DNA from: a virus
Direction: 5' to 3' (one strand)
DNA: 64,000 nucleotides
Virus record (IMG/VR): IMGVR_UViG_3300035138_000032
Coordinates: 1-64,000 of that record
The notes beneath the pieces were generated by a model, which saw nothing but the letters and a program-made list of their open reading frames with translations, made no database searches and was not told where the DNA came from. Position 1 is the first letter of the stretch, and the number at the start of each line of letters is the position of its first letter. The position numbers and the translations under genes are program-made. Shown here in pieces: positions 3,837-14,978 of the stretch.

Positions 3837-4124
3837 TCAGAAATCGGTTAAGAGAAACTCAAATTCTTCTTCTGGTATTGGCTCACCCGTGTTCGGATTC
3901 TCGTGCGTTAGTGGGATATGGAATATTTCTTTTTGTCGCTCCCGTTCGCATGCCTCTACTTTTCTCACTTTCATTGTTGTATAATCATATAATACGAGGC
4001 AGGGGTCTCCGATTTTTAGTGTCTCGTGTTGGGGAAGCCTAAGTGTACTTCCTGTGGGTAGCTGCACTTTGAGCAGTCCCACGTTTCCGGTAACGACGCC
4101 TTTTAGCGCCGTAACGGTGATCAT
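3837..4124 (-). CDS. Hypothetical protein (small beta-barrel-like)
   Basis: ATGA overlap with the upstream gene; LKIGDPCLVLYD. Confidence 0.6.
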   Translation of the reverse strand: MITVTALKGVVTGNVGLLKVQLPTGSTLRLPQHETLKIGDPCLVLYDYTTMKVRKVEACERERQKEIFHIPLTHENPNTGEPIPEEEFEFLLTDF

Positions 4125-5677
4125 TGCACGGTTTCGTAGACATTGTCCACGATTTTTACGGCGCATTTTTCGTTGAACGTTGATCCGGCGCCTGCTTCAT
4201 CTCTGAACACCCATGCAATGATATGCCCCTGGCTTGCCTGGGCGGCATATTGTGTGAGCGCTCCATTGGCATTTTTCTTGTACGGATTCTGTGTCAGAAA
4301 CGATCTCAATACCTTGTTTCCGCCAAGATTTAGGGCCAGTTTGTATCCAACGATACCGCTTTTGGGAAATACCAAACCTGTTACTGCGCCGTTGAATGGC
4401 AATTCCGTTGCGGATTGTGTGTTTTCGATGGTGTAGCTCTGATATGACACAATCACGCCTTCGGCGCCGTATCGTTTGACAATTTCGCTCAAATCCACCG
4501 GATGGGCGATGGCCGGGATGTTTCCAAAGTGAAACGTATTGGTAGCGGGATTCTTTTTCCAGCCACAGTTCACGAACATGTGGTGGTACAGTTTTAGCCA
4601 TACTTCTTTCAGGAACGCCGGCAACATTTCCGTTGCGATGGTCGGCGCCGCACCCATTGTCACTGTTGATCCTGCTACTTCGTTGGGCAGTGGTACCTCA
4701 AACGGATTCGCATTTTCTTTGGGAGTGCTCGGTGCGTTTGTATTGACCGGTGTAGGGGGTACAGGCTGTGTACCCGTTCCGGCCAACATTGCCGTAATCT
4801 TGTTCAGGTAGTCTTGGGTAATTGCCGGTTCCGGTGTTTCTTCATCGACCTTTACTTCAGCGGTTCCGGCCACGGCTGGTTCCTGAACTTCGACTGATAC
4901 CGGTTTATCCACCACTTCGTGTACCTGTTCACCGTTCTCCAGATGGCCCTCGAGATTCACCGCTGTTACTTCTTGTTCCCACGCTTCCTCATCATTGGTG
5001 TAAGCCATTTTGATGAATTCACGTAGCGTTGTACAGCTTTTGGGGCCATCTTCGTAAACCACGCCATTGGCCAACTGGTCTTTGGCTTTGATCACCCAGG
5101 GCAGGTCTTTGGTGTCTTCACCGATGAATAAATCCATGAGCTCAACGCCGATGTACCCGAGGTCATCCGCCGGGATTTCGATGTCATACGTTTTGGCCAG
5201 GAATACCAGATCCGCCATTGCGTCGTTGTTGGCCGATTCTTCGAGTTCAACCGGTGCTTCCCTTTTTGCCTGTTCGTATATCGCTCTGTCCATCTGTGCG
5301 TTTTCGATGTGACTGATCTCATGTCCAATGGCCACTAATACATTCACCCAGATGATCCCGGCCAGTCCGAGGTTCACGTCCCCGCCGGCCGCAATCACTT
5401 TGGCATCTTCCATGCATTTCGCCAGGTTAATCACGATGGCGTCCACGTCCTCGTGGGCCATTCCGATGTTTCCTTCCGGATAATTGTCTTTCCGGAACAT
5501 CACCAACCGCGGCGGGTAATCCTTGTGTCGATCCAACAGCGCGCAGAGTAATCCGGTCATTTTGTCTCCGACCAGTTCCGCGCCGACGATCATTGTACCG
5601 CCCTTTGTGATGATGAATTCCTCGATCTCGGTTTCAACTTTCTTTTCTTGCTGTACTGCTGTTGCTACTTCATTCAT
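4121..5677 (-). CDS. 518-aa protein with an HExxH metallopeptidase-like motif and a Pro/Thr-rich linker
   Basis: VAIGHEISH followed by a downstream E (LEESAN); two domains joined by a linker; GGAGG RBS. Confidence 0.6.
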   Translation of the reverse strand: MNEVATAVQQEKKVETEIEEFIITKGGTMIVGAELVGDKMTGLLCALLDRHKDYPPRLVMFRKDNYPEGNIGMAHEDVDAIVINLAKCMEDAKVIAAGGDVNLGLAGIIWVNVLVAIGHEISHIENAQMDRAIYEQAKREAPVELEESANNDAMADLVFLAKTYDIEIPADDLGYIGVELMDLFIGEDTKDLPWVIKAKDQLANGVVYEDGPKSCTTLREFIKMAYTNDEEAWEQEVTAVNLEGHLENGEQVHEVVDKPVSVEVQEPAVAGTAEVKVDEETPEPAITQDYLNKITAMLAGTGTQPVPPTPVNTNAPSTPKENANPFEVPLPNEVAGSTVTMGAAPTIATEMLPAFLKEVWLKLYHHMFVNCGWKKNPATNTFHFGNIPAIAHPVDLSEIVKRYGAEGVIVSYQSYTIENTQSATELPFNGAVTGLVFPKSGIVGYKLALNLGGNKVLRSFLTQNPYKKNANGALTQYAAQASQGHIIAWVFRDEAGAGSTFNEKCAVKIVDNVYETVQ

Positions 5678-5791: not shown

Positions 5792-6046
5792 TTATACCTC
5801 CTTGTGTTTCATGAGTTCTTCCCAAGCCTTTCCCTCACCGCGTCTGAACTTTGATGCCTGACGTTTTGTGGGCGCTATTCCAGATGCCATGCATGCGTTA
5901 ATGAACGATGTGTTCTCCTTAGCAAAAATTGCGTTTGATTCCGGCTCTTGGGTTTTTGGTTTTCGCACTGTAAATTCGAGTTTTTTCTTTATTGATTCTA
6001 TGGCCATTTCCGATAATAAGTCCACTATTTGTGATAATGTTGCCAT
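5792..6046 (-). CDS. Hypothetical basic protein
   Basis: 84 aa, GGGAGG RBS, PTKRQASKFRRGEG. Confidence 0.7.
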   Translation of the reverse strand: MATLSQIVDLLSEMAIESIKKKLEFTVRKPKTQEPESNAIFAKENTSFINACMASGIAPTKRQASKFRRGEGKAWEELMKHKEV

Positions 6047-6097: not shown

Positions 6098-6862
6098 TTA
6101 ACTCGGAATATCTCTGAGCCAGAGCTTGATATATTTCTCATCAACAACCCGATCACGCATAACCTCTCGATTACCGATGTCCCTGGCCCACCAATAAGCC
6201 CATCTCGACTCGGTGACTCTATCTCTCATTATTTCTTCATCACCGATATGCCTGGCCCAATAAAAAGCCCATCCTGACTCGGTGATCCGATCTCTCATGA
6301 TTTTCCTATCACCGATAAACTTGGCCCAGTTATAAGCCCATCTCGACTCGGTGACTCTATCTCTCATTATTTCTTCATCACCGATATGCCTGGCCCAATA
6401 AAAAGCCCATTCTGACTCGGTGACTTTATTTCGCATGATCTCTTTATCGCCGATAAACCTGGCCCAGCGATAAGCCCATTCTGATTCAACAACTTTATCA
6501 CGCATGACTTCTTTATCACCGATATCCCTGGCCCAATAATAAGCCCATCCTGACTCGGTGATCCGATCTCTCATGATTTTCCTATCACCGATAAACTTGG
6601 CCCAGTTATAAGCCCAATACGATTCAGTGATTTTCTCACACATGATCTTTCGATCACCGATATTCCTGGCCCATCGATAAGCCCATTCTGAATTGATTTC
6701 AATATCTTTGATTACCTCGAGAACAATTTTACGAAATGGTTTTAGCTCTTTCATAATTTCGTCGAAACACTTATCTTCATCCTCAAATATATCTACTACG
6801 TCCTCCGGCAGTTTGCCAGAGAACAATTCTTTTGCCAGTTTTCTTTGTTCTTTGTAATTCAT
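6098..6862 (-). CDS. Trp-rich 23-aa tandem-repeat protein A (8 repeats)
   Basis: ESxWAYxWARxIGDxxxMRDRVT x8 between N- and C-terminal caps; AAGGAGG RBS. Confidence 0.9.
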   Translation of the reverse strand: MNYKEQRKLAKELFSGKLPEDVVDIFEDEDKCFDEIMKELKPFRKIVLEVIKDIEINSEWAYRWARNIGDRKIMCEKITESYWAYNWAKFIGDRKIMRDRITESGWAYYWARDIGDKEVMRDKVVESEWAYRWARFIGDKEIMRNKVTESEWAFYWARHIGDEEIMRDRVTESRWAYNWAKFIGDRKIMRDRITESGWAFYWARHIGDEEIMRDRVTESRWAYWWARDIGNREVMRDRVVDEKYIKLWLRDIPS

Positions 6863-6886: not shown

Positions 6887-6954
6887 GGCAACGGAGCTTG
6901 ACCTCGTCCAGCGGCTTCCAAAGGGGCAGTCGAGAGAAACGAATCCTCTGATCT
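6887..6954 (-). ncRNA. Motif Q copy 2 (6926-6954) next to a degenerate pseudoknot motif P (6887-6924)
   Basis: Sequence similarity to the other copies; lies directly upstream of the RBS of repeat protein A. Confidence 0.5.
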
Positions 6955-6963
6955 GTTTTTACC

Positions 6964-7404
6964 TTATGCCCTGTGTTCCACGAGGGTATGGTTCAAGCCA
7001 TTGAGTTGCTCATCGATGATCTTCGAAATAATGTTCCAATCACCTCCTCCAATGCGTGGGTATCCGATTCGTTTGTGTGGAAACATTACTCCGACTGCAG
7101 CGAAGGCTGTTTCAATCGCGCTGTAGTTGGTTTGCAGTCTTTTACCATAGCCAAATTGTGTATAGGCATTGATAATGGTAATGTCGTGGCCATTTCTGTT
7201 GACAGTAGCCTGTGTGAACGATCCTAATTTGTTCATATCACCTCGGACCGTTCTCTGATCTGCCGACCAAGCTTCTGGAAAGTTAATGCGAATTTGATTT
7301 GCAAAACCAGCTCCCATGGTATTGAAACAGTTGCATCCATGTACAATAAGATTGAACGTTCCTGTCAGCGCGAGGCTGATTAAATCGCCTTTGATTATTC
7401 TCAT
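6964..7404 (-). CDS. Macro domain protein (ADP-ribose binding/hydrolase)
   Basis: IIKGDL, IVHGCNCFNTMGAGFA, NAYTQ and PRIGGG motifs. Confidence 0.9.
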   Translation of the reverse strand: MRIIKGDLISLALTGTFNLIVHGCNCFNTMGAGFANQIRINFPEAWSADQRTVRGDMNKLGSFTQATVNRNGHDITIINAYTQFGYGKRLQTNYSAIETAFAAVGVMFPHKRIGYPRIGGGDWNIISKIIDEQLNGLNHTLVEHRA

Positions 7405-7772
7405 GATCTTATTCTCCTGTCCAGTAAGGCGGCATCCCCATTGTGTTTAATCCACCATTGGACCCAAGTAATGGGTGTGTTATTGTTTATGAGTGCTTTT
7501 AATACTGCGTGTCTGAGATTTGGTTGTCGGCCTGAGTATATTACCATATCTTCAAAGTCGCCATTTTTAATCATCTCAAGGAGTTCTTCATTCAGGGTTC
7601 CTCGCAGCATTCTCCTTGCCAAGCGCTTCTGTTTTTTTATCTCCTTCTCCGCGTCTTGTTTGATGTTCTTGATACTTGTGGTGATTTTGCCGGCGACGTT
7701 AATTAAGAGTTCATCTCCGAGTTGAATGGACGCAGTGAATTTGTTATTTTCGATTTGAAATGAAAGCTTCAT
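7401..7772 (-). CDS. Hypothetical protein
   Basis: 123 aa, GGAGG RBS, ATGA coupling. Confidence 0.7.
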   Translation of the reverse strand: MKLSFQIENNKFTASIQLGDELLINVAGKITTSIKNIKQDAEKEIKKQKRLARRMLRGTLNEELLEMIKNGDFEDMVIYSGRQPNLRHAVLKALINNNTPITWVQWWIKHNGDAALLDRRIRS

Positions 7773-7802
7773 TCTATTACCTCCTGTTTCTGTTATCAGA
7801 GA

Positions 7803-7831
7803 ACGGTAGTATAGAAACCGTCCTCCGATCT
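7803..7831 (-). ncRNA. Motif Q copy 3
   Basis: ACGGT-agtat-AGAAAC-cgtcct-CCGATCT, enclosed by a GAGAAC/GTTCTC stem. Confidence 0.5.
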
Positions 7832-7851
7832 GTTCTCAGCACCTGGTCTGT

Positions 7852-8016
7852 TCATTCACCTCCCAGACATTTTGTGTAACCGACTGATCTCAGGAATAAG
7901 TACTTTGCCCATTCCTTATAGACACTGATGGAAGCAGCACGTGTAGCATACGGCCGATGTTTTGTGTGGTCGTTAAGGTATGGATCGCAGGCTGCTTTGC
8001 ATTGGTCAGTGTTCAT
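7852..8016 (-). CDS. Small hypothetical protein, 54 aa; absent from the ORF track
   Basis: MNTDQCKAACDPY...; AGGAGG RBS. Confidence 0.6.
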   Translation of the reverse strand: MNTDQCKAACDPYLNDHTKHRPYATRAASISVYKEWAKYLFLRSVGYTKCLGGE

Positions 8017-8061
8017 GTTAATTACCTCCTGGTGTTTGTTTATATGTTAATGATCAAAATT

Positions 8062-8102
8062 ACAGTAATAGAGAAACTGATCAGCAGTTCATTCTCTGAT
8101 CT
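8062..8102 (-). ncRNA. Motif Q copy 4
   Basis: ACAGT-aatag-AGAAAC-18 nt-CTGATCT. Confidence 0.5.
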
Positions 8103-8119
8103 ATTCAGTGTATACGCCA

Positions 8120-8236
8120 TCACAGTAGTGCTACGCCTACGGCCAGTATAAGTCCAAGCCAGCGATCACATTTACCATCACGTACTTCATAGGCGATGAT
8201 GACGCAGGTAACAATTTTTGCAATTAGGATTCCCAT
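8120..8236 (-). CDS. Small hydrophobic peptide, 38 aa; absent from the ORF track
   Basis: MGILIAKIVTCVIIAYEVRDGKCDRWLGLILAVGVALL; AGGAGG RBS. Confidence 0.55.
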   Translation of the reverse strand: MGILIAKIVTCVIIAYEVRDGKCDRWLGLILAVGVALL

Positions 8237-8249
8237 GTTATTCACCTCC

Positions 8250-8285
8250 TGCTACAAGTTTAACCTCAGCCAGCAGCTTCCGAGG
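8250..8285 (-). ncRNA. Pseudoknot-like motif P, variant copy
   Basis: Minus strand CCUCGG-AAGCUGC-UGG-CUGAGG-UUAAACUU-GUAGCA. Confidence 0.6.
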
Positions 8286-8365
8286 AGCCCGGTTTTCCTG
8301 GGACTTCCGAAATTTTTTCCAGTTCTATTCATAGAGGTAGTTTTTAGGGGCAGGGCACCCGGTTG

Positions 8366-8746
8366 TTATACTTCCACTATTACTTGACACTTTGTAATAT
8401 CAAACACCTTTATGAATCCCCTGTCGTCACTCAGCACAAGATTAAGTTGGTCTGAATACCAGCCATTGTTGTGGCCATAGCCAGGAATACGCACAGGGAA
8501 GCCTGCCAATGGGATTAAAGCAATGCCATACCCCTCTATTCGTTCAAAGAATCCATCAGACGTTAAGTCGAACTCAAGTCCTTCGAAGTCTGCAATAGTC
8601 AAGTCTGCGAAACTTAAATAATGCGATTCGCAACAAAATTGACTATTGTCAGAGATTAAATATTCACTATGGTCAGAGGTTAAAACCACCCCATTGTCAA
8701 ACTCCAAAGATTCATCGTCGATCTTAACAACCTTAACTTTATCCAT
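8366..8746 (-). CDS. Phage hypothetical protein (CCES...NNGWYS motifs)
   Basis: Start moved to MDKVKV, which has a GGGAGG RBS. Confidence 0.7.
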   Translation of the reverse strand: MDKVKVVKIDDESLEFDNGVVLTSDHSEYLISDNSQFCCESHYLSFADLTIADFEGLEFDLTSDGFFERIEGYGIALIPLAGFPVRIPGYGHNNGWYSDQLNLVLSDDRGFIKVFDITKCQVIVEV

Positions 8747-8789
8747 ATCTATTCCTCCCGTTCTTGCCGCAAAATTTTCACGATTTCTC

Positions 8790-9383
8790 CTACTGACAGT
8801 TCGCGCCTCTTTGGTGGGAACGCTTTGTAGCGCACAGCGCCTGGCAGGCGTGTGCCCTGTTTTTATGACCCCCAAAGGCTTCCCCGCAGTACTGGCACTG
8901 CCACCCAATCGGCGTCCACTTTATATTGGACGTCTCTGCTACGTCCTTCATCAGCTCTTGCAGCTTCTGAAAGTAAAGGTCTTTCACTACGAACATAATT
9001 CTTCGTAGCAATTTCTTTAATAGGTCATGCTGCGGCCATCGATCGTTATAATCCAGGTAGCCAGCGGCCAATGCCGCATACCTGGCTATTTTGACTTCTG
9101 GTGCCGAATACTTTATTCCTTCCTGGCTATACGAACGGCCCTTCTTTTTCCAATATTTTTGTGGCCATCTTTCATCACACACCACAAACCCCGCAGCAAA
9201 CCCGGCCACCTCCAGTGCCTCCTTGTTGACACCCGCAAACTTCCTTGCTACCCTCACAGCCCATTCCACTTGTTGGGCTGGGCTTAAAAGTAACAGTTTG
9301 GCGGACATGAGATCTTCCATTGTACCATAATTGATATCTTGTAATTTTTCCACGCAGTCTATGTGTGGGTTTAAATTTTTCAT
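8790..9383 (-). CDS. Hypothetical protein with a C-terminal Cys/His zinc finger
   Basis: WQCQYCG...HACQALC. Confidence 0.7.
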   Translation of the reverse strand: MKNLNPHIDCVEKLQDINYGTMEDLMSAKLLLLSPAQQVEWAVRVARKFAGVNKEALEVAGFAAGFVVCDERWPQKYWKKKGRSYSQEGIKYSAPEVKIARYAALAAGYLDYNDRWPQHDLLKKLLRRIMFVVKDLYFQKLQELMKDVAETSNIKWTPIGWQCQYCGEAFGGHKNRAHACQALCATKRSHQRGANCQ

Positions 9384-9429
9384 GATTTAATCCTTCCTGC
9401 CCCGGTTTCCCGGGGCGGTTATGATTGTG

Positions 9430-10239
9430 TTATACCACACAGCCAGTGGCTAGTTTCTTTCTCATAATCCCGTGATAACTTGGGATGCTCCCGAGCCAGA
9501 GTTCGACATGTTTTTTATCAGTGACCCTATCACGCATGGCTTTCCTATCACCGATGTTCATGGCCCACCAAAAAGCCCATTCTGATTCGGTGACTTTATT
9601 TCGCATGATTTTCCTATCACCAATATCCCTGGCCCAGCGATAAGCCCAATACGATTCAGTGACCCGATCGCGCATGATCTCTTTGTCACCAATATTCTTG
9701 GCCCATTTATAAGCCCACTCTGACTCGGTGACCCGATCACGCATGACTTCTTTATCACCAATATCCCTGGCCCATCGATAAGCCCATCCTGACTCGGTGA
9801 CCCGATCACGCATGACTTTTCTATCACCAATATTCTTGGCCCATTTATAAGCCCACTCTGACTCGGTGACCCGATCACGCATGACTTCTTTATCACCAAT
9901 ATCCCTGGCCCATCGATAAGCCCATCCTGACTCGGTGATCCGATCTCTCATGATTTTCCTATCACCAATCCACCTGGCCCAGCGATAAGCCCATTCTGAT
10001 TCAGTGACTCTATCACGCATGACTCCCTTATCACCAATAAGCCTGGCCCAATAATAAGCCCATTCTGAGGGAATTTCGATATTCTTGATCACTTCAAGAA
10101 CAATTTCCCGGAACGGTTTCAGTTTTTCCAGGATAGCACCGAAACACTCATCTTCATCTTCAAATACTTTTACCACATCACTCGGCAGTTTGCCGGAAAA
10201 TAGTTCTTTTGCAAATTTTCTTTGTTCTTTGTAATTCAT
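9430..10239 (-). CDS. Trp-rich 23-aa tandem-repeat protein B (8 repeats), paralog of A
   Basis: Same N-terminus (MNYKEQRK), same RBS context and same repeat unit as 6098..6862. Confidence 0.9.
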   Translation of the reverse strand: MNYKEQRKFAKELFSGKLPSDVVKVFEDEDECFGAILEKLKPFREIVLEVIKNIEIPSEWAYYWARLIGDKGVMRDRVTESEWAYRWARWIGDRKIMRDRITESGWAYRWARDIGDKEVMRDRVTESEWAYKWAKNIGDRKVMRDRVTESGWAYRWARDIGDKEVMRDRVTESEWAYKWAKNIGDKEIMRDRVTESYWAYRWARDIGDRKIMRNKVTESEWAFWWAMNIGDRKAMRDRVTDKKHVELWLGSIPSYHGIMRKKLATGCVV

Positions 10240-10257
10240 TGAAACCTCCTTGTCTCA

Positions 10258-10298
10258 TGTTATGCCACAAGTTTAACCTCAGCCAGTGGCATCCGAGG
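10258..10298 (-). ncRNA. Pseudoknot-like motif P
   Basis: 41 nt identical to 13655..13695; stems CCUCGG/CUGAGG and AUGCCAC/GUGGCAU. Confidence 0.65.
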
Positions 10299-10307
10299 AG
10301 TTGGTTA

Positions 10308-10556
10308 TCATTTAATGGTGCAGATGAGTCCATCCGGAAATGTGTTGTGGAAATCAGTGTTTAACTTCGCACCGATGGTATTGCCACTCTTCATGATTCG
10401 TGATTTCATGTGTATGGGCAAGTCGACAAAGTCAAGCCGAACCTCTGTGTAGCTAGATGGTTCTATCCTGTCCGGTTTCGATAAAAGTTTCAATAAAGCA
10501 TCAATTTTCTTGTTGGCTTCCACCAACATAATCTCCATTGGTGTTAATCTTGACAT
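10308..10556 (-). CDS. Hypothetical protein
   Basis: 82 aa with AAGGGG RBS. Confidence 0.65.
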   Translation of the reverse strand: MSRLTPMEIMLVEANKKIDALLKLLSKPDRIEPSSYTEVRLDFVDLPIHMKSRIMKSGNTIGAKLNTDFHNTFPDGLICTIK

Positions 10557-10578
10557 AATAATCCCCTTTCTTCAAAAA

Positions 10579-10610
10579 GCAGTTAAAGAGAAACGATGGA
10601 GCTCTGATCT
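10579..10610 (-). ncRNA. Motif Q copy 5
   Basis: GCAGT-taaag-AGAAAC-9 nt-CTGATCT. Confidence 0.5.
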
Positions 10611-10626
10611 GTTCGTTTGTATTAAT

Positions 10627-10863
10627 TTACTGACACTGGGCTGCTTCTTCTGGGAATAATCCATTCTCATCCAATTCCTCCCCGCATTCATCACAGAATA
10701 ACTCATTAGGATTTACTGCGCGTTTAGGTCTGGTTCCAGAAGCCGTATGTTCGTCAGATTGGTTATATGATACAACCTGTCTTCCACAACATGGACAATA
10801 TTTTTTAATAAGATTACCTCCTCTCATATTGAATTTAGATCCTCCATTAGTAAACGGTCGCAT
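10627..10863 (-). CDS. Small zinc-ribbon protein (start uncertain)
   Basis: CPCCG...CDECG. Confidence 0.65.
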   Translation of the reverse strand: MRPFTNGGSKFNMRGGNLIKKYCPCCGRQVVSYNQSDEHTASGTRPKRAVNPNELFCDECGEELDENGLFPEEAAQCQ

Positions 10864-11249
10864 TCATGATGAGGGCCTACCATATCAGCCCCAAACCATT
10901 CCCTTGCCCTATTGGTATCTGGAATGACCATCTCACCGCACCATATACACTTGCCAGTTGGAAAATCCTCCTCTTCGAGGGGATCGTTGGGATAACAAAA
11001 CCCATTATCGTATTGGTGAGCTGTAGGGTCCACTACAAGATTATCTTCGGTGAAGCACCAACAATGCCCCTCAAATAGGTCTTGGATTCCAACCAGTCGA
11101 AGTTCCGGAAACCTCTCTACCATCTTTTTGGAGTAATGCACACATGAACCTATCACTTTTTTACCGTCGGCCGGAACATTACTGTTAATCCAATCTTGGT
11201 ACATCACCGCTTTGTTTGGGTCGATGCGTGAATCTACATAACCTATCAT
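10824..11249 (-). CDS. Putative transglutaminase/papain-like Cys-His-Asp protein
   Basis: GSCVHYS...GHCWC...VVDPTAHQY spacing; AAGGAGG RBS before the ATG at 11249. Confidence 0.5.
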   Translation of the reverse strand: MIGYVDSRIDPNKAVMYQDWINSNVPADGKKVIGSCVHYSKKMVERFPELRLVGIQDLFEGHCWCFTEDNLVVDPTAHQYDNGFCYPNDPLEEEDFPTGKCIWCGEMVIPDTNRAREWFGADMVGPHHECDRLLMEDLNSI

Positions 11250-11472
11250 AATACCTCCTTTCTTTATGTTGTCTATGTATTTAATCAACCATTCGGAAGA
11301 CGGATATACTCCGCCTTCCTATGTGATTAATTAAAAGCTGAGAAGCTGAATTTTTTAATCCTGGAATCTTCTGGTTTGCCCAAGGTGCTTGTAGGGCGGT
11401 CGTCATTCCAATAATGGACCAGTGACAATGATTCTCTTTCAGGATCGGGGGGCCTAGTGAGGTCTGAAACAC

Positions 11473-12018
11473 CTATGCACCAGGAATATCAGTATACACA
11501 TCCACGGGCGGAAGATCATAGTCCGGAGGCTCACTGGGATTCGCATATTGCTGTTGTACCCCATACGGAAGTGGTACATGGCTACTCTGTGCCCCTTGCG
11601 TATATGCCCTGGGGTCTCCGTATGCATTCTCCGTGGGTCTCTTGTCAAGATAATTGATGAACGCGGCCTGTATCTCATGGGCGTATCTCTTGGCCATGAC
11701 GGGCTGATTATTGGCGTAGCAGATGACATTCCCATTCGCATCCTTGACCGCTCCCAAGAATTCCCTGGTTTCATATCGCCCCCTCACGAGCACATGACTG
11801 CCCTTGTGAAGGTACTTGGCGGCATTCTCCGCGTCGGCATTCCAACATACCACTGTATGTCGGTCAACCTTCTCACGAGGTTGTCCGGTGGTCTTGTCTT
11901 TCCATCTCCTGTTCGTATAAACCCTGAGGTTGCAAACGGGAATGTTGTTTTTGGTGTATCTTAATTCCGGGTCTGCGGCCAGATGTCCAACAACCAAAGC
12001 TTCGTTAATGTCTGACAT
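11473..12018 (-). CDS. ssb: Single-stranded DNA-binding protein
   Basis: NEALVVGHLAADPELRYT, HTVVCW, AKYLHKGSHVLVRGR; acidic Pro-rich tail. Confidence 0.92.
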   Translation of the reverse strand: MSDINEALVVGHLAADPELRYTKNNIPVCNLRVYTNRRWKDKTTGQPREKVDRHTVVCWNADAENAAKYLHKGSHVLVRGRYETREFLGAVKDANGNVICYANNQPVMAKRYAHEIQAAFINYLDKRPTENAYGDPRAYTQGAQSSHVPLPYGVQQQYANPSEPPDYDLPPVDVYTDIPGA

Positions 12019-12092
12019 AGTAATGTCCTTTCTGCCCGGCTTGGGCATAACAATGACCGATTCAGCGTTCCCCTTGATCGGCGTATATTGGT

Positions 12093-12407
12093 TTAGAAAT
12101 TCTTAAATGTACCGTTTACCTCTACCCACCCTGGCGACATATACCTGTAGCCACATTTGACACAGACGTGAATCTTGTGGCGTAAGTCGGGTTTTCGAAT
12201 AAATTTGATCATATGCCCATCTCCGCAGGCGGGGCAGGTAAATTCCATTATCATCCTTTTACCAGGCACCAGAAATGGCGCACAGCCAAATTTCTTCGCG
12301 CGCTGAACAATGTCGTACACGCTGGGCTTACCATTGGGGTATATCCCGAGCAGATACGGATTCTCCATGACGTTCTTTTTTACACTGGTTTTGTTGTTTG
12401 AATGCAT
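12093..12407 (-). CDS. Zinc-ribbon protein
   Basis: CPACG...CVKCG; AGGAGG RBS. Confidence 0.7.
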   Translation of the reverse strand: MHSNNKTSVKKNVMENPYLLGIYPNGKPSVYDIVQRAKKFGCAPFLVPGKRMIMEFTCPACGDGHMIKFIRKPDLRHKIHVCVKCGYRYMSPGWVEVNGTFKNF

Positions 12408-12469
12408 AAACCCTCCTTTTCTGTATGTGCTACCAAGGTTAACTTTTTAACCTAAGCAGCGGTTCATTT

Positions 12470-12754
12470 TTATACATGTATGTCTATCAGGTTTCCATTT
12501 GGTGAATTTCTGGAATGTATAACGTTTATAGCAAACACATTCTTTCCAGCGGAGTTTTTACCATCAGCCACTCTTCCAGAAGCCTCAATATAATCGTTTT
12601 CCTTGAATAGCTTCCGGAATATGTTTACCACTGCTTCACCAATAATGACGGCAGGGATAATATACACCCTACTTTCAATAATCACTTCACACATTGATTC
12701 TGATACTACATCAATGCTTGTAACGTAGCCGCAAATTCTAACCCTTTCATACAC
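12470..12754 (-). CDS. Small OB-fold-like protein
   Basis: GTG start with AGGAGG; VRICGYV...LFKENDYIEASGRV pattern. Confidence 0.5.
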   Translation of the reverse strand: MYERVRICGYVTSIDVVSESMCEVIIESRVYIIPAVIIGEAVVNIFRKLFKENDYIEASGRVADGKNSAGKNVFAINVIHSRNSPNGNLIDIHV

Positions 12755-12983
12755 GATAACCTCCTTTCGGGATGTTCCTGAGCCCTTGATCACTAAGATT
12801 CATGAACCACCAATAAGGCCACATCGATTCAGTAACTCGATCATGCATAATTTCTTTATTATCACCGATGCGCGATACCCAGTAATAAGCCCATTCTGTT
12901 TCAGTGGTTCTGTACTTTAAAGGTCTTTTCACCGGAGCCCTGTTAAACACCCTACCAAATAACTTTTTTACAAAATTAATCAT
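12747..12983 (-). CDS. Short remnant or third member of the Trp-rich repeat family
   Basis: TETEWAYYWVSRIGDNKEIMHDRVTESMWPYWW, about 1.5 repeats. Confidence 0.7.
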   Translation of the reverse strand: MINFVKKLFGRVFNRAPVKRPLKYRTTETEWAYYWVSRIGDNKEIMHDRVTESMWPYWWFMNLSDQGLRNIPKGGYRV

Positions 12984-13022
12984 AATACCCTCCTTGTATT
13001 TGGTTGTTATTAGTATAATTCC

Positions 13023-13056
13023 AAAAAAACGGGGTAGAAGCAAAAGCTCCTACCCC
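13023..13056 (-). terminator. GGGGTAG-family intrinsic terminator, copy 1
   Basis: GGGGTAG...CTACCCC stem followed by G-T7 on the minus strand. Confidence 0.8.
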
Positions 13057-13178
13057 ATAATACTAAAAACTCCACACACGAGCACCGTTTTTTGCCCACG
13101 TGAAAAGAAGCAAACCGAGCCACTAAACAAGGCCCGCCGCCTTGAGAGCGCTGGCTAACCCGCTCTCAAGTTTTGGAG

Positions 13179-13415
13179 TTACTTTCTGTAATATCTTGAG
13201 TAATTGGGTCTGTAAACCCACCTACCATTCCGGAAGTCGAGGATGCCGAGATTGTAAATCATGATCTCCTCTTCCTCGGTGAGTTTACGGCCGGGGCAAT
13301 GTGTGGTTAGCGTTCCTTCAAATCCATTACACACTGTGCAATATCCCAAACCACCATCACAGAATCGGCAATACGGCTTGCCGCATTTACATTCGAAGTA
13401 TGAGTGTTCAGCCAT
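13179..13415 (-). CDS. Cys-rich small protein
   Basis: CKCGKPYCRFCDGGLGYCTVCNGFEGTLTTHCPG. Confidence 0.75.
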   Translation of the reverse strand: MAEHSYFECKCGKPYCRFCDGGLGYCTVCNGFEGTLTTHCPGRKLTEEEEIMIYNLGILDFRNGRWVYRPNYSRYYRK

Positions 13416-13417
13416 TG

Positions 13418-13597
13418 TCAACCTCCTTTCCTGTTACAAGCAGCCTCATGTTCAGTGAGGCGGTCATAGTAGAATTGGGCTTTAGCCCAAAACCTCTTGG
13501 AGCCCTCCATATTGCCGTCGGTTTCGGCAGTCTGGGCAGCCTCCATGAATCTATAGCACATACTTTCAAGCCTGTGCTTTTCTTTTAGATGATTCAT
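13418..13597 (-). CDS. Hypothetical protein
   Basis: Short ORF with GAGG RBS after a GC-rich hairpin. Confidence 0.55.
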   Translation of the reverse strand: MNHLKEKHRLESMCYRFMEAAQTAETDGNMEGSKRFWAKAQFYYDRLTEHEAACNRKGG

Positions 13598-13654
13598 AGC
13601 CAATATCCTCTCTGCCCCGGGTAACCGGACTGCGCCCCGGGGCGGTTGTGATTG

Positions 13655-13695
13655 TGTTATGCCACAAGTTTAACCTCAGCCAGTGGCATCCGAGG
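13655..13695 (-). ncRNA. Pseudoknot-like motif P
   Basis: 41 nt identical to 10258..10298. Confidence 0.65.
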
Positions 13696-13705
13696 TAGTG
13701 CTTTA

Positions 13706-13918
13706 TTAGTTTTCTACCATCCAGGCAGCCATCTCGTCGATGACGTGCTGGGGGGCATTGGTGTAATCCGCCAGAAAGCACGGAATACACAGAACGGGCC
13801 CCTTCTCATAACGACGAAGGTGCTTATTCTTGGTACTTTCGCCGCAGTGCTCGCAACGGCCCGGGCCATCCTCACCGATGCTGTAGTTCTTGTATTGAAG
13901 CTGTTCTAATGTACTCAT
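13706..13918 (-). CDS. Small zinc-finger protein
   Basis: CEHCG...CIPC; AAGGAGG RBS. Confidence 0.7.
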   Translation of the reverse strand: MSTLEQLQYKNYSIGEDGPGRCEHCGESTKNKHLRRYEKGPVLCIPCFLADYTNAPQHVIDEMAAWMVEN

Positions 13919-14488: not shown

Positions 14489-14804
14489 AATTACTCCTTT
14501 CAATACCCCGGTAGTATACCCCCGGGTCGTCAATGTGTTAGATGTCCATTAAGAACACCCCCCTGCATTATTTTACCTCTCGGCAAGGGTCGAATGAGGT
14601 CAATTTGTCATTTAACGAGTCAAATCGAGTAAAACACTCATTTACCAAAAAATCCAAGAAATGGATATAAAAACTCATAAAGGGAGGGGGGCTATAATAA
14701 CAAATACAAATACATATAACTCCTCTCATATATAGGGTCCCCCTTACAATCAATTTGGTCCCATAAAACAGTTCGACCATGATATATGTAGTAATACTAT
14801 ATAG

Positions 14805-14879
14805 TTAGTATAGAATCAATTAGTATAGAATCAATTAGTATAGAATCAATTAGTATAGAATCAGTTACCATAGAGTTAA
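14805..14879. repeat. 15-bp tandem repeat TTAGTATAGAATCAA x4 plus a degenerate copy
   Basis: Copies at 14805, 14820, 14835 and 14850. Confidence 0.95.
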
Positions 14880-14978
14880 TTAGCACAGCATAGAACTATC
14901 CATATTACCTTATATATAATTTGTCCGGGGTTCTAAAAACAAATCGACCATAATAAATTAGAATAAACAAACCTCCAT

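Follow-up and report, generated by a model that had tools for sequence, protein, structure and literature searches.

Which function could a short sequence have that recurs between the early genes of an uncultured wetland phage? The window analysed here, 64,000 nt of the viral record IMGVR_UViG_3300035138_000032, holds three clean copies of an RNA knot of about 35 nt, termed motif P. A preliminary description had pointed to a 41-nt identity on the minus strand between positions 10258–10298 and 13655–13695, and this identity is exact. The third copy (8245–8285) is 80% identical to the 41-nt sequence of copies A and B. A 37-mer, with up to 3 mismatches allowed, gave 2 matches in the window and the 20-nt core gave 3, as compared to none in 100 shuffles, and no further clean copy was found in the whole 77-kb record. 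The copies and the features around them are as follows (bit scores refer to model R1):

13661–13695, minus strand: motif P copy A, 35-nt core (68.9 bits, E 8e-15)
10264–10298, minus strand: motif P copy B (68.4 bits)
8251–8285, minus strand: motif P copy C, stem 2 GCUGC/GUAGC (60.8 bits)
13418–13596, minus strand: small ORF downstream of copy A
9430–10239, minus strand: gene of a 23-aa-repeat protein downstream of copy B
8120–8236, minus strand: 38-aa membrane-like ORF downstream of copy C
13614–13643, minus strand: GC-rich hairpin GCCCCGGG / CCCGGGGC without a U tract

In copy A, stem 1 is formed by CCUCGG (13695–13690) and CUGAGG (13679–13674), L1 consists of AU, and stem 2 pairs GCCAC (13687–13683) with GUGGC (13665–13661); UGG occupies positions 13682–13680 and UUAAACUU positions 13673–13666. 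The knot starts 10 nt past the first and 7 nt past the second stop codon (UAAUAA) of ORF 13706–13918. Between copy A and the Shine-Dalgarno (SD) sequence of ORF 13418–13596 lies the GC-rich hairpin, which is part of the copy-A leader module and has a paralogous module at 9397–9418. Copy B starts 9 nt past the first and 6 nt past the second stop codon (UGAUAA) of ORF 10308–10556, and the SD of the repeat-protein gene follows about 13 nt downstream. Copy C directly adjoins the SD AGGAGG (8250–8245). Its stem 2 differs by one swap from C-G to U-A and one change from A-U to G.U, which confirms the compensatory change described before. A role as stimulator of stop-codon read-through or frameshifting was dropped because of the double stops upstream of copies A and B.

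Three further sites had been listed as degenerate or truncated copies. They are not equivalent: one is a decayed paralogue, another was left by a deletion, and the third is an unrelated hairpin:

6887–6924, minus strand: decayed copy upstream of the paralogous repeat-protein gene 6098–6862
9430–9450, minus strand: truncated remnant within the 3′ end of gene 9430–10239
12428–12465, minus strand: perfect nested hairpin GCUGCU-AGGUUAA-AAAG-UUAACCU-GGUAGC, not a pseudoknot

The first of these is the positional homologue of copy B, with about 60% identity within the motif and more than 95% from the SD onward in the alignment. Its UUAAACU core is mutated, its stems are largely broken, no stable fold is formed, and the covariance model of motif P does not find it. 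The statement that copies precede both repeat-protein genes thus holds for the intact copy before 9430–10239, but only a decayed copy precedes 6098–6862. The remnant at 9430–9450 corresponds to a copy-A-like module minus 10 nt (AGGUUAAACU) and minus the 5′ strand of stem 1; it keeps the stem-2 letters only, has no stem 1 and reaches 8.9 bits with model R1 (E about 6). On its 3′ side, the downstream spacer and GC hairpin are the same as after copy A. The hairpin at 12428–12465 (−16.1 kcal/mol, z −4.56) has letters in common with copy C and is possibly a rearranged derivative; the motif P model gave no match to it. The position at gene boundaries that had been claimed for all copies is seen throughout the window, including the degenerate sites.

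The covariance-model search that had been proposed earlier retrieved 20 more copies from 12 metagenome contigs and one MAG contig, giving 23 in total. Proteins common to the window and these contigs are only 32–47% identical, yet a 19-nt core of motif P is identical between the genomes, which indicates strong selection. The genes downstream of P in the related contigs are varied and unrelated (pilin-like, SSB and membrane-protein genes, and a large conserved gene), so that a special link to repeat proteins, as first suspected, is not borne out. For the large conserved protein 59 homologues were found; the 23-copy alignment consists of the copies from the window and from the 13 contigs. In relatives, P is followed by motif Q, which has a hairpin plus a U run. 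Many small zinc-ribbon proteins are encoded near motif P.

Other searches were less productive. Blastn with 7.9 kb against GenBank phages gave no match, and the sequencing runs listed are of wetland DNA only. Exact and degenerate patterns in IMG/VR revealed no further copies; the matches were unrelated terminators, namely those with CUGAGGUUUUUU, and a chance match (L055). A protein-guided search of IMG/VR with the large conserved protein returned none, and 14 of the 15 matches in a scan of species genomes were chance matches in coding sequence, L056 alone being real. No Rfam family was found at motif P, neither at the gathering score across the window nor at E up to 10 (7 kb and 101 nt), and our literature search found no published description of it.

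Our data demonstrate that motif P is an H-type RNA pseudoknot with two crossing helices that each show compensatory changes. Pairing holds in 89.8% of the cells of the 23 copies, with a covariation score of 0.347 versus 0.082 in shuffles. None of 500 shuffles reached this score, and slid controls gave at most 0.11, 3-fold or more lower. Stem 1 comprises 6 bp with an invariant G.U beside a G-C, and compensatory changes affect 2 pairs in about 3 independent events (CCUCGG/CUGAGG to CGUCGG/CUGACG, CGCCGG/CUGGCG and CCACGG/CUGUGG); its pairing was not imposed by the search model. Stem 2 has a 5-bp covarying core with compensatory changes at 4 pairs and six pair types; in one case U.G is replaced by G.U among close relatives. 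The L1 loop has 2 nt, and CUGG and G-UUAAACU are invariant; natural variation concerns the spacer's first U and, in L041, 5 nt inserted immediately 3′ of the stem-1 G. Nested-fold z scores are around 0, and nested energies are uninformative for a pseudoknot. The G.U pairs can form only on the gene-sense strand and all 23 copies have the orientation of the flanking genes, so that motif P is an RNA structure and not a DNA site. This supports the initial view of an H-type pseudoknot acting in cis on messages.

A highly conserved 19-nt intergenic block upstream of genes, as known for phage-specific promoters, might also reflect conservation at the DNA level as a promoter, protein-binding site or single-strand initiation signal. 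Considering the strand-specific G.U covariation and the compensatory changes in two crossing helices, we regard this as barely conceivable; moreover, the record has only 3 copies, all within 5.4 kb. Sigma-70 and sigma-54 promoters were rejected, since sigma-70-like hexamers at the right spacing are missing and the TGGC...TTG spacing, as read from the sequence, does not suit sigma-54. An intrinsic terminator was dismissed as well: stem 1 is followed by UUAAACUU, not by a U tract, while the real terminators of this phage have the form GGGGUAG...CUACCCC plus U7. A leader peptide starting from the internal GAGG-N6-UUG was discarded because the UUG is lost in CUCG variants and copy C has an immediate stop codon, and an anti-SD switch through CCUC because this sequence is lost in the CGUCGG, CGCCGG and CCACGG variants. 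Likeness to a T-box-like UGG that binds the tRNA CCA end, to an S15-type G.U/G-C site or to a T-loop mimic is a resemblance of letters only.

The UGG and the 8-nt segment were originally taken as a 3-nt and an 8-nt loop. They may be better described as two extra stem-2 pairs (G-C and G.U), a U.U mismatch and a 5-nt UUAAA loop. By analogy with the Watson-Crick-type coremin, the G-G just 5′ of the stem-1 return strand would pair with the C-U after UUAAA; the invariant GG/CU would be the counterpart of coremin's short second stem, extended by the covarying 5-bp helix. Stem 2 would then consist of 8 layers with the U.U mismatch, and UUAAA would lie in the minor groove of stem 1, leaving no spare base in the 35 nt. 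All 23 copies have the letters for both pairs, without variation, and the third position is U.U, U.C or U-A. The extra pairs would thus be a refinement that follows from the coremin analogy and not from covariation.

The gap between stop codon and P is 6–10 nt in 14 of the 23 copies and never shorter. Distances from P to the SD are mostly 0–32 nt, with a full spread from 0 to about 260 nt. In five copies P directly follows a stop codon and lies 240–260 nt upstream of the next start codon, which fits a role at the 3′ end of the upstream gene as well as a leader role. Once cut within the A/U-rich spacer, the upstream message could be capped by P at its 3′ end, which would block 3′-to-5′ exonucleases, as do the RNase III hairpins of T7 early mRNAs and REP elements. 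The frequent onset shortly past a stop codon, the A/U-rich sequence 3′ of the knot and the leader of the large conserved gene, where P adjoins the upstream stop about 250 nt from the next start, agree with such capping. We nevertheless consider it unlikely: in six contexts the SD is close to P but upstream stops are 46–80 nt away, P is kept with the downstream gene where the upstream genes differ, and known coremin activity is directional, against 5′-to-3′ machines. L022 and L029, for example, share a stretch of 100% identity that begins about 14 nt upstream of P and extends through the gene start; farther upstream they are unrelated. From these sequences we infer that motif P is exchanged between genomes as a leader cassette that includes the downstream gene.

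The invariant unpaired bases of P could equally mark a protein-binding site. An operator at which an RNA-binding protein of phage or host would jointly control the translation or decay of a set of early genes, similar to T4 RegA targets or the gene 32 leader pseudoknot, has a modest chance of being correct. In spite of the low protein identity between the genomes, around 13 bases that are unpaired or invariant have been conserved, several leaders per genome carry a copy, and many small zinc-ribbon proteins are encoded nearby. These conserved letters are, however, those of a protein-independent viral element. An operator is also difficult to reconcile with a P-to-SD distance varying from 0 to about 260 nt, with single copies that decay while the gene stays, and with the lack of a co-occurring candidate protein.

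Of the cis-acting roles first suggested (processing, stabilisation or antitermination), a stabilising or processing-linked role is the best reading; antitermination is possible, but nothing favours it. P would in that case modify the transcribing RNA polymerase or block Rho, as HK022 put RNA does. In line with this, P is a structured RNA that acts in cis in an early operon, intrinsic terminators flank copy A (14217–14187, 14003–13971 and 13058–13029), and in relatives motif Q is found 3′ of P. That 3 copies are present in 5.4 kb without terminators between B and C would be superfluous for a put-like effect, P does not resemble the two-stem put structure, and it accompanies the starts and ends of genes, not terminators, making antitermination very unlikely.

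Among the readings weighed we give least credence to an RNA that is released from the transcript to act as a decoy or like a type III antitoxin, which had been considered at the outset because length and pseudoknot fold resemble ToxI-type repeats. The copies are single, 2–3.4 kb apart and dispersed in unrelated leaders, no tandem array is present, and no ToxN/AbiE-like gene or match to a toxin family was found downstream. A ligand-sensing aptamer of the H-type riboswitch class (preQ1-I, SAM-II or guanidine-III) shares topology, size class and an A-rich loop in the stem-1 groove with P. With unrelated downstream genes, variable SD distance, no expression platform and no Rfam riboswitch match, it is hardly credible.

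The reading we prefer, although we hold it at slightly less than an even chance, is that motif P acts as a protein-independent roadblock at cistron boundaries, which shields the downstream message from 5′-to-3′ decay and insulates it from ribosomes. P would be transcribed as a compact, autonomous knot within early polycistronic phage messages and form a coremin-like mechanical barrier, without help of proteins, to machines that move 5′ to 3′ on RNA. At its site between a stop codon and the ribosome-binding site that follows, 5′-to-3′ decay begun upstream, either by RNase J or by RNase E scanning from a monophosphate end, would come to a halt, and the downstream cistron would be stabilised. It may also keep terminating or sliding ribosomes out of the next leader. 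Such a roadblock would explain differing stabilities of neighbouring cistrons in compact phage operons, and P would mark recombination cassettes of leader and gene that move between phages.

How does P compare to known elements? In the pistol ribozyme (env25 sequence), the loop of the P1 hairpin takes part in a pseudoknot and P1 is followed by a UUAAA linker; the distribution of pistol is phage-associated. P shares the hairpin loop that pairs downstream, the UUAAA linker and the association with phages, but lacks the P2/P3 helices and the G-U cleavage junction of pistol (RF02679). A small self-cleaving ribozyme or ribozyme core that processes polycistronic phage transcripts, to which the invariant G.U, the conserved unpaired bases and the intergenic context could also point, is highly improbable: neither pistol nor another ribozyme matched even at E up to 10, no sequence outside the 35 nt is conserved, and all bases are used by the knot. 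The T4 gene 32 leader pseudoknot and the T7 RNase III sites are functional analogues, being structured leader or junction elements of early messages that control stability or translation, without similarity to P in sequence or architecture. The gene 32 knot depends on gp32 and has a single gene as its target, and at the T7 early-mRNA sites RNase III cuts long duplex hairpins. The frameshifter pseudoknots of luteoviruses (BWYV, PLRV) resemble P as minimal H-type knots of similar size with loop-groove triples; they lie inside coding sequence after a slippery site and fail to stall Xrn1, whereas P follows stops, which are often double.

The closest counterpart is coremin (xrRNA-C, xrRNA-WCC), which reads GUCCGAAGACGUUAAACUAC and is carried by beny-, cucumo- and many other eukaryotic RNA viruses, where it blocks Xrn1 and scanning ribosomes and induces frameshifting; the spacer A15–A20 is essential, and in the Watson-Crick-type coremin G8-C18 is strictly needed and adenosines are placed by prediction in the minor groove of stem 1 (PMC6546385, PMC10520033, PMC10321173). 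Bacterial RNase J1 is also stopped by a flaviviral xrRNA. Ordinary frameshifter pseudoknots do not stall Xrn1, so that a stable knot alone is not sufficient. Both elements are compact H-type pseudoknots in intergenic position or just after a stop, with a short stem 1 followed directly by G-UUAAACU. Compared to the coremin spacer G-UUAAACUAC, these 8 of 8 letters of P are identical and invariant, followed by U/C/A-G instead of A-C. P shows no variation at the essential A-A-A-C-U positions, nor in the G and C that correspond to G8/C18; this G directly precedes the stem-1 return strand and would face the C after AAA. Natural variation of P is confined to positions tolerated in coremin mutagenesis.

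P differs from coremin in its loop, A-N-(5–6 nt)-UGG of 10–13 nt versus YGAD/YGNNAD of 4–8 nt, and in its 6-bp stem 1 with a G-C closing pair in place of the C-G loop-closing pair; in BNYVV a G-C loop-closing pair abolished resistance. It has no conserved second hairpin, which in coremin adjoins the spacer with 4 bp or more: a hairpin is found 3′ of P in some copies only (copy A, L041, L056, L037), but not in copies B and C or in L022. Its place is taken by the 3′ strand of stem 2, as the bases 3′ of AAACUU pair with the enlarged loop in the covarying 5-bp helix. Finally, the messages that carry P are those of a DNA phage, a setting that lacks Xrn1. The cultured Synechococcus phage S-CRM01 has 9 short coremin-like knots, all in sense orientation. 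Like P, these knots (25–31 nt) consist of a hairpin plus (N)UAAACU and lie between genes, but their loops are of the Y...A-D type with 4–8 nt and their stem 2 has 2–3 pairs. Many of them adjoin tRNA genes, whereas no tRNA genes are found in the window. Model R1 gave no matches on S-CRM01, and no short-loop coremin-like knots were found in the window and the related contigs.

It is possible, though less likely than not, that a DNA bacteriophage has in P an RNA that resists exoribonucleases and ribosomes, a protein-free knot built on the coremin UUAAACU/minor-groove core with the obligatory second hairpin replaced by a loop-to-tail helix. The literature searched describes no exoribonuclease-resistant RNA of bacteria or phages. 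If the assignment is true, roadblocks of the xrRNA type would be a strategy common to viruses of bacteria and eukaryotes, and P would provide natural covariation evidence for the still unsolved coremin fold. With its compact fold of 35 nt, P is of a size that suits structure determination as well as direct assays with RNase J1, Xrn1 and toeprinting, and it could help to settle the folding of coremin-type knots. Motif P represents a clean, strongly covarying fold that carries the critical letters of coremin and gives a different answer to its requirement for a second hairpin.

The preliminary description had reported a repeated pseudoknot-like element, here called motif P, on the minus strand of the window, and this repeat was confirmed. 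Two 41-nt stretches (13695-13655 and 10298-10258) are identical, and a third copy (8285-8245) is 80% identical to this pair. A 37-mer with up to 3 mismatches allowed occurs twice in the window and the 20-nt core CTGGCTGAGGTTAAACTTGT three times; neither occurred in 100 dinucleotide-preserving shuffles. The change of stem 2 in the third copy from GCCAC/GUGGC to GCUGC/GUAGC, also described earlier, is present. The window derives from a 77-kb IMG/VR virus record (completeness by CheckV 28%), and a search of the rest of this record gave no additional copy. Copies can also decay: the paralogous repeat-protein gene retains only a P wreck of about 60% identity, and in another leader module 10 nt of the P core are deleted. 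In relatives a second leader motif, Q, stands together with P ahead of a large conserved gene; at this place in the window, upstream of gene 4121-5677, Q is kept, but of P there is no more than a weak trace (AAAUUUAUGUGGCG) at 5792-5800 (minus strand), into which the end of ORF 5792-6046 extends.

GenBank phages and IMG/VR were searched for relatives of P, and none were found. A pattern fixing stem 1 alone matched terminators (CCUCGG...CUGAGGUUUUUU) that are unrelated to P. Scanning metagenome contigs with an 18-nt core yielded 39 loci, 12 of which have CCUCGG at the correct upstream distance and a complementary stem 2, neither imposed by the scan. The remaining 27 are chance matches without either feature, and therefore serve as a built-in control. 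A covariance model (R1), a search proposed earlier, was built from the found copies with stem 2 alone supplied as structure, and detected diverged copies, second and third ones, on contigs that already had one. One more copy came from a degenerate scan of species genomes, on the MAG contig L056 (QMND01000176.1; 2.7 kb), so that alignment A2 comprises 23 copies from about 15 independent gene contexts. L056, which is assigned to a Candidatus Shapirobacteria MAG and whose copy has a compensatory stem-1 change (CCACGG/CUGUGG), is probably phage sequence that was binned with this MAG.

The metagenome contigs with P are phage-like and distant from the window, the proteins common to both (SSB, a large 520-600-aa protein and its neighbours) being 32-47% identical. 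Despite this distance the 19-nt core CUGGCUGAGGUUAAACUUG is letter-identical across genomes; P is under strong selection. Genes for type IV pilin-like proteins (N-terminus GFTLIELIAV) and for a PilX-like minor pilin occur in related contigs; L032 and L037 have P upstream of the pilin gene, L040 does not.

Pilin-related genes in related contigs
L032: 249-701
L037: 2609-3031
L040: 3168-3524 and 317-1396

The covariation check proposed in the preliminary description was carried out by counting pairs on the 23 copies of A2 with the pseudoknot written explicitly. Standard pairs fill 89.8% of cells, compared to 75% in shuffles, and the covariation score is 0.347 versus 0.082 +/- 0.017 in shuffles, none of 500 of which attain the observed score. 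When the partners were slid by 1-3 columns, the score was 0.11 or less. In stem 2, four pairs show two-sided changes, with up to six pair types per position, and between the close relatives L022 and L040 a U.G pair is flipped to G.U. Stem 1 shows about three independent compensatory events, although it was absent from the structure given to the model (CCUCGG/CUGAGG to CGUCGG/CUGACG, CGCCGG/CUGGCG or CCACGG/CUGUGG). The earlier reading as an H-type pseudoknot was right, with compensatory changes in both stems. Support for stem 2 is limited to the five inner pairs; in the window copies two A-U pairs follow on the outside, but these lack conservation, and the conserved unit is therefore 35 nt rather than 41. 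Invariant are the C-G, G.U and G-C pairs at the inner end of stem 1, the A following stem 1, the C-G closing stem 2, the U-G-G preceding the stem-1 return strand and the U-A-A-A-C-U after it.

A DNA site recognised independently of pairing is highly improbable. G.U pairs are possible solely in the transcript of the gene sense strand, and all 23 copies have the same direction as the flanking genes. For these reasons P is an RNA structure rather than a DNA site.

In 14 of the 23 copies the distance from the preceding ORF's stop codon to P is 6-10 nt, and it is never shorter; P might accordingly be viewed as a 3′-end cap for the upstream gene, which we consider unlikely. In six contexts P lies 46-80 nt from any stop, yet near a Shine-Dalgarno (SD) motif. 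The next SD is found 0-32 nt downstream in most copies and abuts the knot in the copy at 8251-8285. Five copies follow a stop codon but are separated from the large conserved gene by some 250 nt, and Q lies in this interval. Between L022 (1007-1200) and L029 (reverse), identity is 100% from about 14 nt before P (UCUAACAMAU) through P, spacer, SD and gene, while the sequences upstream are unrelated and belong to different genes; P therefore travels with the downstream gene. The comparison also took in L040. Leader-plus-gene cassettes appear to be exchanged between contigs, with the breakpoint at the knot.

The genes downstream of P are mutually unrelated (repeat protein, small membrane proteins, type IV pilin-like protein, SSB and others). 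The preliminary description had listed a type III antitoxin or decoy RNA, which is barely credible given single copies and unrelated downstream genes; the stabilising or processing-type cis role it also listed agrees with our best reading. Control of such genes by a riboswitch is hardly to be expected, and a protein operator in their leaders is rather doubtful. No sigma-70-like promoter was found at a fixed distance from P, and the real terminators of the phage are quite unlike it. An antitermination element is improbable.

Strong terminators of one family (GGGGUAGA...UCUACCCC + U7), minus strand
14217-14187
14003-13971
13058-13029

Five tandem 15-bp units (TTAGTATAGAATCAA) at 14790-14891 contain, on the minus strand, overlapping TTGATT-16-TATACT promoter-like sites heading the leftward early region, with the three terminators downstream.

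Motif Q (AGAUCAGAG...GUUUCUCU..UAACUG) follows P within 10-20 nt in the ~250-nt leader of the large conserved gene in related contigs, where it forms a small hairpin with a U run (e.g., UCAGUU-UCUCUUU-AACUGA-UUUUUU). Upstream of gene 6098-6862 in the window, Q comes first and decayed P second; this reversed order indicates that Q and P are independent modules. Several leaders have GC-rich hairpins without U tracts (GCCCCGG...CCGGGGC) immediately next to the SD motif GCAGRRAGGA; these hairpins may represent another leader element.

Other leader elements
Motif Q, window, minus strand: 10612-10570, 8105-8060, 7835-7790, 6955-6925, 5770-5740
Motif Q, related contigs: L053, L045, L021, L037, L047
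GC-rich hairpins, window, minus strand: 13614-13643, 9397-9418, about 12020-12040, 8290-8308

The earlier failure to recognise P as a known class is in agreement with Rfam 15, which gave no match in the whole window at gathering thresholds and, at E up to 10 on 7 kb and a 101-nt slice, nothing overlapping P. That P is a ribozyme is very improbable. No description of such an element in phages was found in the full-text literature searched.

We tentatively favour a reading of P as a mechanical barrier that acts without protein on polycistronic early messages. Decay in the 5′-to-3′ direction or RNase E scanning begun upstream would be halted by it, and so would ribosomes, so that the downstream cistron would retain a protected, correctly folded leader. 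A viral xrRNA has been shown to block the bacterial RNase J1 in a fold-dependent, enzyme-independent manner, which makes such a barrier physically plausible.

The closest known system is coremin (xrRNA-C), a plant-virus exoribonuclease-resistant RNA that brings Xrn1 and scanning ribosomes to a halt and also induces frameshifting (PMC6546385, PMC10520033, PMC10321173). It has the sequence GUCCGAAGACGUUAAACUAC and comprises a hairpin of 3-5 bp whose loop is YGAD or YGNNAD, a spacer, and a second hairpin that cannot be omitted. Within the spacer A15-A20 are essential, while U13/U14 may change and an insertion is accepted behind G12. In the Watson-Crick type the loop ends in three bases that pair with the three bases following AAA; the pair G8-C18 is indispensable, and docking of the adenosines into the minor groove of stem 1 is predicted (same papers). 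Like coremin, P has G-UUAAACU immediately 3′ of stem 1, identical to the coremin spacer in these eight letters, after which P has U/C/A-G in place of A-C, and its invariant G-G is at coremin loop positions 7-8, facing the invariant C-U. Within this segment natural copies of P differ only at the first U and by 5 nt inserted directly behind the stem-1 G, both of which coremin tolerates. Unlike coremin, P does not have the published loop consensus, closing pair and hairpin 2; where coremin requires a separate hairpin 2, the tail of P pairs back to an enlarged loop. Read on the coremin model, P could be a classical gap-free H-type knot. Because the G-G and C-U bases never vary, we infer rather than observe the GG/CU pairs and this refinement of the knot.

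Putative gap-free reading of P
Stem 1: 6 bp
L1: 2 nt
Stem 2: 8 layers (G-C, G.U, U.U, then the covarying 5 bp)
L3: UUAAA

Nine short coremin-like elements (hairpin plus UAAACU) were found in the cultured Synechococcus phage S-CRM01 (HQ615693), all nine in sense orientation, one with the validated CGAAAU loop and UUAAACUA spacer. Model R1 did not detect these short knots, and a search for short-loop knots in the window and its relatives gave none.

Short coremin-like elements in S-CRM01 (record positions)
Plus strand: 129028, 129624, 131058, 131945, 136422, 141811, 149417, 149525
Minus strand: 73054

Five begin 2-4 nt past tRNA 3′ ends, three end 4-7 nt short of a tRNA 5′ end, and one is in the gp32 (SSB) leader. 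For the element occupying the entire tRNA-Met/tRNA-Leu spacer, an insulator or processing role fits better than message protection. P itself is not coremin by the published definition but a distinct long-stem-2 form, an uncatalogued variant of the coremin/xrRNA-C kind in a DNA phage.
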